A stretch of 5,369 nt of DNA from a virus (lineage: Duplodnaviria > Heunggongvirae > Uroviricota > Caudoviricetes), in the IMG/VR virus record IMGVR_UViG_2711768070_000016. One strand, 5' to 3'. Under the pieces are notes generated by a model, which made no database searches, was not told the origin of the DNA, and saw nothing but the letters and a program-made list of their open reading frames with translations. The stretch's first letter is position 1. Every line of letters starts with the position of its first letter. Below are positions 1-4,561 of this stretch, piece after piece. Both the position numbers and the translations under genes were made by a program.

Positions 1-678
1 AGCCTGAACGAGTCGGTTAAATCAGAGCAGTCACCGCGGGTGGTGCTCTGGGAAATTGACCTGACGGTGCAGGGCGGTGAGCGGTATTTTTTCTGTAATG
101 AGCTGAATGAAAAAGGGGAGCCGGTCACCTGGCAGGGGCGGCAATATCAGGCATACCCGATTGACGGCAGCGGTTTTGAGATGAACGGGAAGGGCAGCAG
201 TGCCAGACCGTCGCTGACGGTGTCCAATCTGTTTGGTCTGGTCACCGGGATGGCGGAGGACCTGCAGAGCCTGGTGGGGGCCACGGTGGTCCGCCGCCGG
301 GTGTATGCCCGTTTTCTGGATGCGGTGAATTTTGTGGCGGGCAATCCGGAAGCGGACCCGGAGCAGGAGCTGAGCGACCGCTGGGTGGTGGAGCAGATGT
401 CAGAGCTGACGGCCATGACAGCCTCGTTTGTGCTGGCAACACCGACGGAGACGGACGGAGCGCTGTTTCCTGGTCGCATCATGCTGGCGAACACCTGTAT
501 GTGGACCTACCGCTCTGATGAGTGTGGTTACACGGGCGGGGCTGTGGCGGATGAGTTCGATAAACCCACCACGGATATCCGTAAGGACAGATGCAGCAAG
601 TGCATGCGCGGGTGTGAACTGCGCAGGAATGTCGGCAATTTTGGCGGTTTCCTTTCCATTAATAAACTTTCGCAGTAA
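1..678 (+). CDS. L: Tail tip assembly protein L (lambda gpL family); 5' end lies outside the window
   Basis: Frame 1 is open from base 1 (no stop in 1-39) through TAA at 676-678. Translation (..VLWEIDLT..GGERYFFCNE..EKGEPVTWQGRQYQ..FPGRIMLANTC..ECGY..CSKC..GC..NVGNFGGFLSINKLSQ) matches lambda gpL as I remember it, including the C-terminal Cys cluster. The ORF track starts it at GTG 40 only because the true start is upstream. Confidence 0.9.
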   Translation, partial: SLNESVKSEQSPRVVLWEIDLTVQGGERYFFCNELNEKGEPVTWQGRQYQAYPIDGSGFEMNGKGSSARPSLTVSNLFGLVTGMAEDLQSLVGATVVRRRVYARFLDAVNFVAGNPEADPEQELSDRWVVEQMSELTAMTASFVLATPTETDGALFPGRIMLANTCMWTYRSDECGYTGGAVADEFDKPTTDIRKDRCSKCMRGCELRRNVGNFGGFLSINKLSQ

Positions 679-686
679 TGGATTAT

Positions 687-725
687 GCCCACCGTCAGGT
701 GGGTTTTTTATAAGGAGTAATCATG
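687..725. repeat. Left boundary repeat (hairpin + T6 + AT + AGGAGT + nn + TCATG)
   Basis: Aligns position-for-position with 2970-3008 at 31 of 39 bases; from the T-run to the ATG, 23 of 26 match. Stem differs by a compensatory change (CCCACC/GGTGGG versus CCCAGC/GCTGGG). Confidence 0.7.
688..709 (+). terminator. Intrinsic terminator-like hairpin after L (stem CCCACC/GGTGGG, loop GTCA, then T6)
   Basis: Read directly: CCCACC 688-693, loop 694-697, GGTGGG 698-703, TTTTTT 704-709. It lies between the convergent L stop (678) and the ClpP-like stop (735). Confidence 0.55.
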
Positions 726-734
726 ATTTACCCA

Positions 735-1271
735 TCAAACAACCCACCAGTTTGCCTGATTGGATGCCAGCCTTGCAGTTTTTATGGAATTAATTATGCC
801 ATGCTCAAGAGCCTTGTTAGCATCCAAAATGGTCGAGTCTGCTATCAGGGATGCCCACCTAATATGGGTTCCGATGTCGATATTGAACGTCTCAACGAAG
901 CGATCAAGATCGTTATCGAGGCATTTCCCGTACTCTCTCAATCTGGCATGGTCGGCGGCTGGGGAGGCAAAGCACCATAATAGAGGATGTAACAGGAATC
1001 TTGATAATGGGTTTGCGAAACGTTCTGAGCCAGCCAGGAAAACGATATTAGCTATGGATTCAACATTGCTTATGTTGTGAGTTCTAACGGTAACAGGGAG
1101 TGACTTAAGAAAGTTATACGCAGTAAAGCCAGCGGCAGTTTCCCCTCCCTGACTTGATATATGGATATTTAATTCAGTTGCGCCTTGAGATAATGCGGTG
1201 AGACAGTGGTTCTGAAGTTGCCCAACAGTGGCAGTGTTAACGGGGCATAAGAAATGAATTGTGTGCAGCAT
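735..1271 (-). CDS. ClpP-fold (S14-like) serine peptidase, 178 aa, lacking the N-terminal axial-loop region of canonical ClpP
   Basis: Translation contains ..IHISSQGGETAAGFTAYNFL..NVESIANIVFLAGSERFANPLSRFLLHP.., which aligns by eye to E. coli ClpP INSPGG...GQAASMGAFLLTAG...RVMIHQP with Ser and His at the equivalent positions (tentatively Ser72, His95, Asp145). Start ATG at 1271-1269 overlaps the mnt-like stop (TAATG on the minus strand). Confidence 0.7.
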   Translation of the reverse strand: MLHTIHFLCPVNTATVGQLQNHCLTALSQGATELNIHISSQGGETAAGFTAYNFLKSLPVTVRTHNISNVESIANIVFLAGSERFANPLSRFLLHPLLWCFASPAADHARLREYGKCLDNDLDRFVETFNIDIGTHIRWASLIADSTILDANKALEHGIINSIKTARLASNQANWWVV

Positions 1272-1519
1272 TATTTTTCATCCTTACCATACATGGTCTT
1301 TAGCGTCTCAAGCAGCGCCTCTTTGAATTTGTCAGCTTCTTGCTGAGCAAATGACTCAACTGACTTTGGCGACCTATCTTCATCAATCGCGGCTTGCAAA
1401 ATCATGACGATCTCGGAGTTAACAGAGCGACCATTTTTTGATGCTCTGACAGCAAGAGCCTCGCGTAAAGATTCAGGGATTCTTACCGTAGTTGGAGAAA
1501 TTGACACACCCTTTGCCAT
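1271..1519 (-). CDS. mnt: Mnt-like ribbon-helix-helix repressor (82 aa)
   Basis: MAKGVSISPTTVRIPESLREALAVRASKNGRSVNSEIV...LKTMYGKDEK has the RHH N-terminus (beta-strand then ..NGRSxNSEI..) and the length and C-terminus resembling P22 Mnt as I remember it. Start chosen at ATG 1519 (preceded by AAGGTG) rather than the upstream ATG at 1561 in the ORF track. It is divergent from arc-like, as in immI. Confidence 0.75.
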   Translation of the reverse strand: MAKGVSISPTTVRIPESLREALAVRASKNGRSVNSEIVMILQAAIDEDRSPKSVESFAQQEADKFKEALLETLKTMYGKDEK

Positions 1520-1633
1520 ATCACACCTTTGGTATTCAATTTGATAGCAAAGTGTATGCAAAAAAATTTTGACTAGATATACTCACTTTGCTATCTTTTG
1601 TATTCGAAAAGAGTTGTTTGTATGGAGGGTAAC
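1520..1633. promoter_or_regulatory. Divergent mnt / arc-ant control region with candidate operators
   Basis: 114 bp AT-rich spacer between divergent RHH genes. Possible rightward sigma70 promoter: TTGACT 1569-1574, 17 bp spacer, TATCTT 1592-1597. GGAGG 1624-1628 precedes ATG 1634. I could not find a convincing leftward -35/-10 pair. Confidence 0.45.
1543..1595. promoter_or_regulatory. 12 bp perfect inverted repeat GATAGCAAAGTG (1543-1554) / CACTTTGCTATC (1584-1595), 29 bp spacer; candidate repressor-binding sites
   Basis: Verified base by base. The right arm overlaps the putative -10 of the rightward promoter. Confidence 0.5.
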
Positions 1634-1786
1634 ATGGAGAAAGAAATAAGTAAGATTTTGGTAAGGATGCCGCAGTCGTTAAAGGATGCTATAGGTAGCA
1701 GGGCAAAGGAAGAGTGCAGGTCGTTTAACTCAGAGGTTATCAAGCGCCTGATAGACAGCTTGAAGAGAGAGGGGGTAATGGTATGA
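1634..1786 (+). CDS. arc: Arc-like ribbon-helix-helix repressor (50 aa)
   Basis: [50 protein letters not shown] resembles P22 Arc (..NGRSVNSEIYQRVMESFKKEGRIGA) in length and motif. Strong RBS GGAGG sits 5 nt upstream of ATG 1634; the ORF-track start at 1598 is a TTG and looks like an over-extension. Confidence 0.7.
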   Translation: MEKEISKILVRMPQSLKDAIGSRAKEECRSFNSEVIKRLIDSLKREGVMV

Positions 1787-1986
1787 GTAAAGAATGTTGT
1801 TTCTGCGGCATTAGCGAATCAGACGCTGATCAAACATACATTTACTCTAAAGAAACAGGTCGGATGCTGTGTAGTGACTGCGTGTTGGACATCATAAGAT
1901 ACAAGCATCTTGGATGTTCTGCCAGCATTAGCAATATAGGTGAAGTATATGAAGGGAAAGATATAACTGATAGAGCAGAAAGTTGA
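1783..1986 (+). CDS. Small standalone ClpX-type C4 zinc-binding-domain (ZBD)-like protein (67 aa)
   Basis: CCFCG..(21 aa)..[11 protein letters not shown] aligns by eye to the ClpX N-terminal ZBD (CSFCGKS...ICDECVDLCNDIIRE): Cys5/6-x-Cys8 and Cys30-x2-Cys33. Start ATG 1783 overlaps the arc-like stop (ATGA); its stop TGA 1984-1986 lies upstream of ant. Confidence 0.6.
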
Positions 1987-2048
1987 AGCCCCAACTGCGG
2001 GAACAGTCAGGGCTTCGGTTGTCAGTAAATCCGTGGAGAAAAACCAAC

Positions 2049-2951
2049 ATGAATAGTATAGCAATTTTAGAAGCAGTGAACACCTCTTACGTACCATTCA
2101 ACGGTCAGCAAATTATCACCGCCATGGCTGCCGGAGTTGCATATGTTGCGATGAAGCCAATCGTTGAAAACCTCGGAATGAGCTGGGGTACTCAGCAACA
2201 AAAACTTATGAAACAACTAGATAAGTTCAACTGTATTCATATGAATATGGTTGCTGCTGATGGAAAGCTTCGTAAGCTACTCTGCCTTCCTTTGAAGAAG
2301 TTAAATGGATGGCTGTTCAGCATCAACCCCGAGAAAGTTCGTGCTGACATCCGCGATAAACTGATTCAGTACCAGGAAGAATGCTTTACTGTGCTGCATG
2401 ACTACTGGACAAAGGGAAAGGCAGAAAATGCACGTAAGAAAACATCTGTTGATGACAGGACTCCGCTTCGTGATGCTGTAAATATGCTGGTCAGCAAAAA
2501 GCATCTAATGTACCCAGAAGCTTATGCAATGATTCATCAGCGTTTCAATGTGGAAAGTATTGAAGAGCTTGATGCATCTCAGATACCGCAAGCCGTAGAG
2601 TACATCCACAGGGTAGTGCTTGAAGGTGAGTTCATTGGCAAACAAGAGAAGAAGCTCAACGGGCTTTCCGCAAAAGAAACAGACAGCCTTGTATGGCTGT
2701 GGGATTATGCCAACCGCTCACAGGCATTGTTCCGTGAGTTGTATCCCGCATTAAAACTGATTCAGTCTGGCTATTCCGGCACATGCTACGACTACGGTCA
2801 TGAGTTCTCGTATGTTATTGGAATGGCGAGAGACGTTTTAATTAATCACACACGAGATGTTGATATCAATGAGCCAGACGGACCAACGAACCTTCTGGCA
2901 TGGGAAAGGCTTAAGAACAAAGAATTGCCGCCTTCACTGCATCACTACTAA
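2049..2951 (+). CDS. ant: Phage antirepressor Ant (P22 Ant-like, about 300 aa)
   Basis: N-terminus [44 protein letters not shown]...[25 protein letters not shown] is the P22 antirepressor N-terminal domain as I remember it. Start chosen at ATG 2049 (GGAGA upstream) rather than the TTG at 1983. Stop TAA 2949-2951. Confidence 0.85.
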
Positions 2952-2969
2952 CAGATTACCAACGAAATG

Positions 2970-2992
2970 ACCCAGCCTCGGCTGGGTTTTTT
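2970..2992 (+). terminator. Intrinsic terminator-like hairpin after ant (stem ACCCAGC/GCTGGGT, loop CTCG, then T-run)
   Basis: Read directly: stem 2970-2976 / 2981-2987, T-run 2987-2992. It is immediately followed by the K RBS AGGAG 2996-3000 and ATG 3006. Confidence 0.55.
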
Positions 2993-3008
2993 ATCAGGAG
3001 TTCTCATG
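2970..3008. repeat. Right boundary repeat (hairpin + T6 + AT + AGGAGT + nn + TCATG), ending in the K start codon
   Basis: Partner of 687-725; see the alignment described there. Confidence 0.7.
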
Positions 3009-3743
3009 CTCTATAGCAATATATTGGCACATGCCCGGCGGTGTGCGCCTGCGGAGTCGTGCGGCTTCGTGGTGAGAACGCCGGAGGGGGAGCGGTATAT
3101 CCCTTGTGTGAATATTTCCGCAGAGCCGGAGGCGTATTTTCGTATTGCGCCGGAAGACTGGCTGCGGGCAGAGATGCAGGGGGAGATTGTGGCGCTGGTC
3201 CACAGTCATCCCGGTGGTCTGCCCTGGCTGAGCGAGGCGGACCGGCGGCTGCAGATAAAGAGTGCCCTGCCCTGGTGGCTGGTCTGCCGGGGTGAAATTC
3301 ACCGGTTCCGCTGTGTGCCGCACCTGACCGGACGGCGCTTTGCGCACGGGGTGACGGACTGTTACACGCTGTTCCGGGATGCCTACCATCTGGCGGGAAT
3401 TGATATGCCGGATTTTCATCGCGGGGATGACTGGTGGCGCAACGGTCAGAACCTTTACCTGGACAATATGGCGGTCACCGGCTTTTACCGGGTGCCCCTG
3501 TCCTCTGCACAGGCGGGCGATATTCTGCTGTGCTGCTTTGGTGCTTCGGTACCGAACCATGCCGCCATATACTGCGGCAACGGTGAGCTGCTTCACCATC
3601 TGCCTGAACAACTGAGTAAACGGGAGAGGTATTCTGAAAAATGGCAACGACGAACGCATTCTGTCTGGCGTCACCGCCACTGGCACGCATCTGCCTTCAC
3701 GGGGATTTACAACGATTTGGCCGCCGCCTCAGCCTGTACGTGA
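3006..3743 (+). CDS. K: Tail assembly protein K (lambda gpK family; JAMM/MPN plus NlpC/P60 domains)
   Basis: ..HARRCAPAESCGFVV.. N-terminus, JAMM motif HSHPGGLPWLSEAD (H-x-H-x7-S-x2-D) and NlpC/P60-type Cys (GVTDCYTLF) and His (NHAAIYCG). Start at ATG 3006 with RBS AGGAG; the ORF-track start 2967 lies inside the terminator hairpin. Confidence 0.88.
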   Translation: MLYSNILAHARRCAPAESCGFVVRTPEGERYIPCVNISAEPEAYFRIAPEDWLRAEMQGEIVALVHSHPGGLPWLSEADRRLQIKSALPWWLVCRGEIHRFRCVPHLTGRRFAHGVTDCYTLFRDAYHLAGIDMPDFHRGDDWWRNGQNLYLDNMAVTGFYRVPLSSAQAGDILLCCFGASVPNHAAIYCGNGELLHHLPEQLSKRERYSEKWQRRTHSVWRHRHWHASAFTGIYNDLAAASACT

Positions 3744-4321
3744 ACACGGCAGCGGAAGCCATTCGCGCCCTGTCGATGCAGATGCCGGGCTTTCGCCGTC
3801 AGATGAACGAAGGGTGGTACCAGATACGTATTGCCGGTGAGGACACGGCACCGGAGGCGGTGTACGCCCGTCTTCACGAACAGCTGGGTGAGGGAACGGT
3901 CATCCACATTGTGCCGCGACTGGCCGGGGCCGGAAAGGGTGGACTGCAGATTGTGCTGGGGGCGGCAGCCATCGTGGGCTCTTTCTTCACTGCCGGAGGC
4001 TCGATGGCGTTATGGGGTACAGCCCTGAGTGCCGGTGGTTTTTCTGCCACCACGATGCTGTTTTCACTGGGTGCCAGTATGATTCTGGGCGGTGTGGCCC
4101 AGATGCTGGCCCCGAAGGCAAAAACACCGGATTACCGCGCAACGGATAACGGCAGACAGAACACGTATTTTTCGTCACTGGACAACATGATTGCCCAGGG
4201 TAACCCGATGCCGGTGCCTTACGGGGAAATGCTGGTTGGTTCACGACGGATATCCCAGGACATCAGCACCCGTGATGAAGGCGGGGGCGGAAAGGTCGTG
4301 GTTATCGGGCGGCAGGGGTAA
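3641..4321 (+). CDS. I: Tail assembly protein I (lambda gpI family)
   Basis: MATTNAFCLASPPLARICLHGDLQRFGRR...QIVLGAAAIVGSFFTAG...NTYFSSLDNMIAQGN matches lambda gpI as I remember it. It overlaps the 3' end of K by 103 nt in another frame. Stop TAA 4319-4321. Confidence 0.9.
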   Translation: MATTNAFCLASPPLARICLHGDLQRFGRRLSLYVNTAAEAIRALSMQMPGFRRQMNEGWYQIRIAGEDTAPEAVYARLHEQLGEGTVIHIVPRLAGAGKGGLQIVLGAAAIVGSFFTAGGSMALWGTALSAGGFSATTMLFSLGASMILGGVAQMLAPKAKTPDYRATDNGRQNTYFSSLDNMIAQGNPMPVPYGEMLVGSRRISQDISTRDEGGGGKVVVIGRQG

Positions 4322-4334
4322 AAAGAATAAAAAA

Positions 4335-4366
4335 TCCCGCAGTGCTCACGGACAGGAACTGCGGGA
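4335..4366 (-). terminator. 9 bp-stem hairpin (TCCCGCAGT / ACTGCGGGA, 14 nt loop) with the U-run on the minus strand
   Basis: Read directly. The plus strand has A-rich sequence 4321-4334 before the stem and no T-run after it, so it looks like a terminator only for leftward transcription. No convincing leftward gene precedes it. Confidence 0.3.
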
Positions 4367-4500
4367 GAGTTACGAAGATTAAGTGTAAGGAATTATTCTT
4401 ATGTCACGACAAAAAACATTAACGCAGAGAAATTATTAGCACCACAGTCAGTTTGTGAAAATGTGAAGATATTCAGAAGTTTTATTCAGTGATGATACAG

Positions 4501-4530
4501 GCATCCTCAGGGATGCCAGTTGTTTTTGTG
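4501..4530 (+). terminator. Hairpin GCATCC-TCAG-GGATGC followed by TTGTTTTTGTG; weak terminator-like element upstream of J
   Basis: Read directly: stem 4501-4506 / 4511-4516, T-rich tract 4519-4530. Confidence 0.3.
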
Positions 4531-4561
4531 CGTAACAGTTATCACAGTAAAGGGTGAGACA

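Follow-up and report, generated by a model that had tools for sequence, protein, structure and literature searches.

Terminator-like hairpins at both edges of a P22-type ant moron in the tail operon of a lambda-like phage

The subject of this analysis is a 5,369-nucleotide (nt) stretch of DNA from a tailed phage (Caudoviricetes; IMG/VR record IMGVR_UViG_2711768070_000016), hereafter the window, and, specifically, two copies of a 39-nt element that combine a hairpin, a T-run, a ribosome-binding site (RBS) and an ATG codon and flank a low-GC island of 2.3 kb between the tail genes L and K (GC content of 39-49% in the island vs 53-65% in the flanks). Judging from its genes and their arrangement, the island is a P22-type immunity I (immI) module, the region of P22-like phages that was named the "ant moron" by Casjens and colleagues and described as being in rapid flux (PMC2629481). 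Most likely, the repeats represent a pair of Rho-independent terminators that enclose the ant moron in its P22-like home and that were moved, with the module as a whole, into the tail operon of a lambda-like E. coli phage. Such a transfer is ordinary phage mosaicism, apart from the left hairpin, which stands out as a remarkably clear short joint between reshuffled gene segments, and the outcome belongs to a known kind of system, a moron (immI) with flanking terminators.

Origin of the module and its insertion between L and K

The comparison drew on P22-like podophage contigs that were found by a pattern scan of IMG/VR and then aligned with the window. Positions 688-2992 are collinear with these contigs in a single block (97.2% identity to contig L029 and 99.8% to L023) whose ends coincide with the first base of the left hairpin and the final T of the right T-run. 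The hairpins thus mark the exact edges of the inserted segment, as the first-pass annotation of this DNA held when it described the repeats as flanking the module. In the P22-like contigs, the module sits between gene 16 and the tailspike gene (gene 9), and ant is followed by ACCCAGCTTCGGCTGGGTTTTTTTAT and then by GCCCAAAATTCACC... and gene 9. The right hairpin of the window aligns to the terminator that is annotated in P22 at 16012-16035 (the ant terminator, t_ant). The left hairpin of P22 (14512-14533) is degenerate, with the 3' arm and the T-run encoding the C-terminus of Mnt (...LYKKTT) and the stop codon located in the loop; in Stx2a_WGPS8, the left hairpin likewise forms the end of the mnt coding sequence. 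In phage Emek, the left element is annotated as a predicted rho-independent terminator (MFOLD) and is followed by an open reading frame (ORF), orf61.

Among the relatives of the window, the L-K site exists in three states: empty, in PhiR5_1, JLK-2012 and many E. coli prophages; occupied by mnt-arc-ant, in Stx phages such as Stx2a_WGPS8, 2851 and 1717; and occupied by clpP-mnt-arc-ant, in PhiR12_1 and in the window itself. The module is thus present or absent at a single inter-gene site among close relatives, as is typical of morons. Its location between L and K is already annotated in databases; literature searches recovered the ant moron concept and found no paper on the L-K location or the flanking hairpins. 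The empty junction reads ...CGCAGTAA ATCCCGGTTT ATGACACAG..., that is, TAA-ATCCCGGTTT-ATGACACAG, with the K side also given as ATGACACAGACTGAATCAGCGATTCTGGCGCAT, and contains no hairpin. Alignments of the empty sites with the window cover 560-678 and resume at 3025, with the left break located exactly at the stop codon of L (678). The module replaced 35 nt of the L-K junction, including the first eight codons of K, and the N-terminus of K reads MLYSNIL... in the window vs MTQTESAIL... in the uninterrupted phages.

The first-pass annotation took the repeats for the footprint of the recombination that installed the module. Under this scenario, the copies were made at insertion, either as a target-site duplication or from a cassette that already existed at the L-K junction, and the left copy is a duplicated start of K; the presence of direct repeats, identical at 31 of 39 positions, exactly at both edges of the insert speaks for it. 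However, the empty sites, in phages as well as in E. coli genomes, contain neither the hairpin nor an RBS of this kind, so that neither copy is ancestral to the junction, and the repeat unit is not present there once, as a target-site duplication would have it. Moreover, the module of P22-like genomes is already bordered by the two hairpins, and the left cassette, with its AAGGAGTAATCATG native to the P22-like module, is identical in P22-like phages that lack K, so the left ATG is not a duplicated K start. The two copies differ at 8 of the 39 positions, although the module is 97-99.8% identical to its P22-like counterpart, and a Pfam scan detected no transposase or integrase. A gapped-pattern search of viral contigs for a single hairpin-RBS cassette, or for the MLYSNIL allele of K, at an uninterrupted L-K junction yielded 0 matches, and a chimeric query joining the end of L to the start of K retrieved only the ordinary MTQTES junction (91.5% identity) from 5,426 complete E. 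coli genomes, 447 of which contain the Ant-K junction and 15 the L-hairpin-ClpP junction. The footprint scenario, along with the idea that a single ancestral copy resides at the uninterrupted junction, is accordingly abandoned here as extremely improbable.

Two short fillers join the module to the tail genes. The left filler, TGGATTATG, is common to the lambda-like copies examined, including those in tail backgrounds where L is only ~80% identical, and is absent from the P22-like contexts, the alignments of which begin at 688; the upstream flank type that corresponds to this filler, TAATGGATTATG, accounts for 26 occurrences of the left hairpin. The right filler (2993-3024) supplies K with a Shine-Dalgarno sequence (SD; 2996-3000), an ATG (3006) and six new codons (MLYSNI); its first two bases (AT) are also found after the T-run of P22-like phages, which makes the shared edge uncertain by 2 nt. 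In a BLAST search of 50,697 phage records, a 34-nt query (2993-3026) was 100% identical in 22 records, every one of them an Ant-K junction, and the filler is absent from the empty sites and the P22-like contexts. Because both junctions are shared by the lambda-like copies, the sequence comparisons indicate that these copies descend from a single founding insertion; on the same grounds, the interior of the module is taken to have diversified later by exchange with P22-like ant morons.

In the annotations of relatives, K starts at 3006, in agreement with the earlier proposal that the right copy provides K with its RBS and ATG. Another in-frame ATG, at 2967 (MTQPRLGFLSGVL-, yielding MTQ as in lambda K), was considered as the K start and rejected, being absent in PhiR12_1 and in P22-like sequences and not being used in the annotations. 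A start at 2967 would extend K through the terminator hairpin and is probably unused.

The two boundary cassettes: similarity, histories and predicted function

The left copy (687-725) is GCCCACCGTCAGGTGGGTTTTTTATAAGGAGTAATCATG and the right copy (2970-3008) is ACCCAGCCTCGGCTGGGTTTTTTATCAGGAGTTCTCATG; their ungapped alignment contains 31 identities in 39 positions, and no direct repeat in the window is longer than the one to which the pair belongs (D1, 43 nt, 79%). In dinucleotide-preserving shuffles of the window, the best pair of 39-mers reached 28/39, and 31 was attained in 0 of the 200 shuffles. A control conditioned on function was assembled from 49 distinct natural cassettes of the same composition (hairpin, T-run, SD and ATG) in ~2.27 Mb of related phage DNA; among the ~30 that belong to neither hairpin family, the best match to the left cassette was 24/39. 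The earlier claim that the same element is present at both boundaries stands on these two comparisons, with the caveat that the hairpins alone match at 12/16 positions, a level equalled by 2 of the ~28 hairpin sequences from other families, and that the CCCAGC-TTCG-GCTGGG hairpin is found in many unrelated contigs. Homology of the copies beyond the ATG (MIYPSN vs MLYSN) was rejected, given that the identity drops to the chance level after ~5 nt.

Upon folding, which had been proposed in the first-pass annotation, both copies form a 7-bp stem with 5 GC pairs, a 4-nt loop and a T6 tract, with similar stabilities of -13.0 and -13.5 kcal/mol, and a terminator scan scored both as terminator-like on the plus strand, with a GC-rich stem-loop followed by a U-tract. 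The difference between the left and right stems is a true double change, from C-G to G-C at stem position 5. Across ten natural variants of the hairpin, a sample with few sequences and few independent events, 95% of the cells pair, both-sided changes occur at two pairs, and the other variation is in the loops; the proposal that a compensatory C-G swap reflects selection on the hairpin is borne out to this extent. Two contigs (L010 and L025) have a different hairpin at the left position, CCCGC-TTAATC-GCGGG, with an A-T pair replaced by G-C.

The extent of the similarity raises the question of whether the cassettes are true paralogues, such that one terminator-RBS-ATG unit was duplicated, or converted, in an ancestral ant moron or in an intermediate phage. 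In that case, a gene with the same kind of leader would formerly have been located downstream of t_ant, and the right filler would be what is left of its leader and initial codons. Apart from the excess over all the unrelated natural cassettes, the stem length, the loop length, T6, the AT spacer, the SD register and TCATG all agree between the two copies, and within the module family a 14-mer, AGGAGTAATCATGA, is duplicated elsewhere, on either side of orf61. Against this stand the unrelated terminators that equal the similarity of the hairpins and the wide occurrence of the CCCAGC-TTCG-GCTGGG hairpin, as well as AGGAGT-NN-TCATG sequences that precede or start three unrelated genes of those sampled; outside AGGAG and ATG, the RBS halves agree at only 3 of 6 free positions. 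Furthermore, to judge from their distribution, the RBS halves have separate histories: the left one is native to the P22-like module, and the right one, absent there, belongs to a filler seen only fused to K. The function-conditioned control favours some relatedness between the cassettes, and the separate histories of the RBS halves favour a rejection of simple duplication. We regard paralogy as rather unlikely, while noting that convergence on a shared design may not explain everything, since 31/39 exceeds the control maximum.

The left RBS and ATG have a life of their own in the P22-like modules. In 12 loci from the first scan and in Emek, this ATG starts orf61, which encodes 61 amino acids (aa) (MTIEERLNN..., PHROG 7586); in other P22-like phages, it starts the same 85-aa ORF (ORF85) as in the window. 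The loci with both orf61 and the ClpP-like gene contain AGGAGTAATCATGA twice, flanking a 251-nt orf61 cassette, and what follows the second copy is the ATTTACCC... sequence that is also found in the window, so that the arrangement in the window would represent either the state that preceded the acquisition of orf61 or a precise deletion between the 14-nt repeats. Thus, of the original proposal on the left copy, one part holds, namely, that its RBS and its ATG at 723 open an ORF antisense to the ClpP-like gene, and the notion of a duplicated K start falls.

If the two hairpins are the terminators of the ant moron, both would point in the direction of late transcription. In a lysogen, where the Q protein is lacking, the left terminator would stop stray rightward transcripts from L, which otherwise would run antisense to the clpP-like and mnt genes and in the sense direction into arc-ant, at the risk of induction; the right terminator would keep transcripts from the ant promoter (Pant) out of K-I-J, the counterpart of the role of t_ant upstream of the P22 tailspike gene. 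During lytic growth, Q-modified RNA polymerase would read through both terminators, and the strong SD located 3-4 nt after each T-run would restart translation, that of K on the right and, on the left, that of ORF85 in the window or of orf61 in sibling modules. The similarity of the two copies would then reflect a shared design, terminator followed by RBS and ATG, at both edges, rather than a duplication caused by the insertion.

Several points weigh against the identification of the repeats as the two terminators of the moron. Termination, read-through mediated by Q or gp23 and translation from both SDs are inferred from sequence rules and from the annotation of, and literature on, P22 and lambda. 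The literature searches turned up no paper in which the left hairpin is described as a terminator, and its sole annotation is the MFOLD prediction in Emek. No donor context for the right filler turned up in the viral, GTDB and metagenome collections searched: exact and codon-degenerate patterns had 0 matches in GTDB representative genomes, and two metagenome scans built to exclude K gave 0 matches outside the K context. Finally, some common descent or gene conversion of the copies is possible, given that their similarity tops that of all the unrelated cassettes.

Gene content and relation to known systems

The features of the window are as follows.

40-678, plus strand: tail tip protein L (Pfam Phage_tail_L, E=7e-93)
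679-687, plus strand: left junction filler TGGATTATG (comparison of lambda-like and P22-like copies)
688-709, plus strand: left predicted intrinsic terminator, CCCACC-GTCA-GGTGGG (688-703) followed by T6 (704-709) (fold, terminator scan, homology breakpoints, flank matrix)
712-725, plus strand: left strong SD (AGGAG, 713-717) and ATG (723-725); the 14-mer AGGAGTAATCATGA spans 713-726
723-980, plus strand: ORF85, 85 aa (PHROG 7758, E=1e-61)
735-1271, minus strand: gene for a ClpP-like protein with the serine protease fold (Pfam CLP_protease, E=2e-11; PHROG 94, E=7e-21)
1271-1561, minus strand: Mnt-like ribbon-helix-helix repressor (Pfam Arc, E=1e-10; PHROG 2685, E=2e-32)
1543-1597, no strand assigned: divergent control region (inverted repeat and promoter-like site)
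1634-1786, plus strand: Arc-like ribbon-helix-helix repressor (Pfam Arc, E=4e-12)
1783-1986, plus strand: 67-aa Cys-rich ORF (PHROG 7150, E=3e-50)
1981-2048, minus strand: sar antisense RNA, which controls ant (Rfam RF00262, 95.6 bits vs gathering threshold 43, E=3e-20)
2049-2951, plus strand: P22-type antirepressor Ant (Pfam P22_AR_N, E=8e-45, and P22_AR_C, E=4e-25)
2971-2992, plus strand: right predicted intrinsic terminator (t_ant), CCCAGC-CTCG-GCTGGG followed by T6 (aligned to the P22 ant terminator; fold, scan)
2993-3024, plus strand: right junction filler ATCAGGAGTTCTCATGCTCTATAGCAATATAT (BLAST of phage records)
3006-3743, plus strand: tail tip protein K with JAB/MPN and NlpC/P60 domains (Pfam; annotation of relatives)
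3641-4321: tail gene I (Pfam)
from 4562: tail gene J, start only (Pfam)

The module displays the hallmarks of an immI region: divergent mnt-like and arc-like genes around a common control region, an antirepressor gene located downstream of arc, encoding the P22_AR_N and P22_AR_C domains and 83% identical to P22 ant in nucleotide sequence, and a sar RNA that overlaps the 5' end of ant. In such regions, Ant inactivates the prophage repressor, and Mnt and Arc repress Pant. Within the control region, a perfect 12-nt inverted repeat, GATAGCAAAGTG / CACTTTGCTATC (1543-1554 and 1584-1595, 29 nt apart), brackets a promoter-like site, TTGACT-17-TATCTT (1569-1597), that matches the consensus at 9 of 12 positions, which is no more frequent than in shuffled sequence, and that occupies the position of Pant in P22. 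From the layout of P22, 1543-1597 is probably Pant with its operators. The start of the mnt-like gene is annotated in PhiR12_1 at a site corresponding to ~1519 in the window.

The start of the ClpP-like gene overlaps the stop codon of the mnt-like gene (TAATG), and the PGAP name of its product is "ATP-dependent Clp protease proteolytic subunit". Visual inspection of this protein suggests that it retains the Ser and His motifs and has Asn at the usual position of the Asp. A gene for a protein with the ClpP fold is housed here within an antirepressor moron. The 67-aa ORF is carried by only some variants of the module. In a search with PADLOC, neither the ClpP-like gene nor the 67-aa ORF matched a defence system, and the matches of orf61 were weak and of the coiled-coil type.

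ORF85 is antisense to the C-terminal half of the ClpP-like gene. In the overlap, 42 near-identical copies show 6 nonsynonymous and 1 synonymous changes in the ClpP-like frame, compared with 3 nonsynonymous and 4 synonymous changes when read as ORF85; in the remainder of the ClpP-like gene, its frame contains 2 nonsynonymous and 8 synonymous changes. With very small numbers, this pattern favours the ORF85 frame, and ORF85 may be a real protein-coding gene antisense to the ClpP-like gene.

The closest known system is the immunity I region of P22, reportedly described by Sauer et al. in 1983, and treated by Villafane/Casjens in 2008 (PMC2629481). The module of the window resembles it in the genes, their order and orientation, the sar RNA and the sequence of the ant terminator (mnt, arc, sar, ant, t_ant), as well as in its placement within a late operon whose transcription depends on antiterminator-mediated read-through. 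It differs in being located between L and K of a lambda-like siphophage rather than between gene 16 and tailspike gene 9, in the addition of the ClpP-like gene and the 67-aa ORF and in the fusion of its right edge to K via a new 32-nt leader that rewrites the N-terminus of K. Lambdoid morons, in the sense reportedly introduced by Juhala/Hendrix in 2000, are independently transcribed cargo, with their own promoter and terminator, located between two genes of a late operon. The module shares with these morons the polymorphism at a fixed site, a GC content different from that of the surroundings and the predicted downstream intrinsic terminator, and the promoter-like site in its control region may stand for the divergent promoters of its own. 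Unlike them, it has an additional predicted terminator upstream, oriented like the first, comprises several genes with a regulatory role instead of one gene, and replaced 35 nt that included downstream coding sequence.

Outside the module, the I-J spacer (4322-4561) is a low-GC segment of 240 nt in which PhiR12_1 annotates a 32-aa ORF. On the minus strand, the spacer contains a promoter-like site (4459-4432, 10/12) and a terminator (4352-4336) that together would give an RNA of ~100 nt; the fold of this RNA is weakly better than those of shuffled sequences (z=-1.9), and there is no Rfam match. In a close relative (L071), a minus-strand gene is inserted in the I-J spacer, and J is preceded by AACAGGAGTTATCATG, which matches the new RBS and ATG of K, CAGGAGTTCTCATG, at 13 of 14 positions; this could be chance.

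The left hairpin as a possible joint of module exchange

The exact 22-mer CCCACCGTCAGGTGGGTTTTTT, that is, the left hairpin with its T-run, occurs 135 times in the loci collected, almost always in ant morons. For the 131 occurrences with sufficient flanking sequence, clustering of the 80-nt flanks yielded 20 upstream and 18 downstream types that appear in 47 combinations, with 31 four-gamete squares. The same short sequence is thus found between reassorted, non-homologous segments, which points to crossovers at or within the short shared element and supports, at the level of sequence, the view that the left hairpin was repeatedly the crossover point between unrelated flanks and hence marks the edges of modules. 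These counts lend weight to an alternative that the first-pass annotation had mentioned, namely, that the repeat is a conserved linker used for modular exchange.

Function, as a terminator that in some alleles also forms the end of mnt, could explain the conservation of the hairpin. Many of the P22-like copies have an A-rich upstream flank, and ~30 copies of the hairpin also qualify as terminators on the opposite strand, that is, as bidirectional. These roles could explain the invariance of the hairpin, but not the reassortment. We put forward, as a tentative proposal that we do not consider the more probable outcome, that the left hairpin (CCCACCGTCAGGTGGG-T6) and, to a lesser degree, the 14-nt RBS-ATG and t_ant are a working recombination joint through which cargo cassettes are swapped. 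Such a joint might operate by short-homology annealing mediated by recombinases of the Erf/Red type or by template switching driven by the hairpin, and the same process would let a regulatory module pass between P22-like podophages and lambda-like siphophages.

A different possibility is that the hairpins are recognition sites for mobile elements or for site-specific recombination, akin to integron attC sites, IS200/IS605-like elements or phage att sites. An invariant palindromic element of 22 nt embedded between many unrelated flanks is compatible with such a role, as is the existence of a variant with an inverted loop (contig L050, with TGAC for GTCA and the stems unchanged). Nevertheless, Pfam and PHROG scans detected no recombinase, transposase or integrase gene in or adjoining the module; the ends of the module are direct rather than inverted repeats and differ in sequence; and the element looks in all respects like a common intrinsic terminator, coincides in some alleles with the 3' end of the mnt coding sequence and is almost entirely limited to ant morons. 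We consider a role as a dedicated recombination site very improbable.

Two rearranged sequences were encountered along the way. Contig L148 (IMGVR_UViG_2681813004_000016; ~2850-7500 of the extracted context) is a prophage remnant with a lambda-type L, the same left junction, mnt-ant and t_ant, followed by a P22-type spacer, a truncated N-terminal domain of the tailspike (81 aa) and, at the end, two host-like ORFs that by eye resemble a penicillin-binding protein and SbmC. From its sequence, L148 looks like a recombinant between a lambda-like and a P22-like phage formed via the shared moron. Separately, the resemblance between 680-694 and 2702-2716 of the window (GGATTATGCC) was discounted, being at the chance level for the window; one contig (L138) has a rearrangement that uses GGATTATGCC.

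The proposed joint falls within a model of phage mosaicism that invokes a "short conserved boundary sequence" and for which examples are, as a rule, difficult to document (PMC3029335). The case at hand resembles this model in that an identical 22-nt sequence is found at many non-homologous junctions and that a 14-nt RBS-ATG repeat flanks the orf61 cassette; it departs from the model in that the linker here is a (predicted) terminator hairpin that, in some alleles, also forms the end of the mnt ORF. Boundary, or linker, sequences are said to have been proposed as mediators of lambdoid modular exchange by Susskind and Botstein in 1978 and by Clark et al. in 2001. To our knowledge, most of the mosaic junctions in phages show no shared sequence.

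Nothing in these observations amounts to a new kind of system. They explain the island of low GC content that many E. coli prophages, Stx phages among them, have in their tail operon as a complete P22-type antirepressor switch that is predicted to be insulated by two terminators and the insertion of which rewrote the N-terminus of K. The presence of a near-identical module in podophages and siphophages amounts to a stretch of homology through which both can recombine. An element of 22 nt located between 20 upstream and 18 downstream flank types is, moreover, a rare case in which the question of whether short conserved sequences direct the exchange of modules can be approached by counting. If the interpretation of the left hairpin as a recombination joint is true, the ant moron would provide a natural, well-populated and testable example of the long-debated boundary-sequence model.

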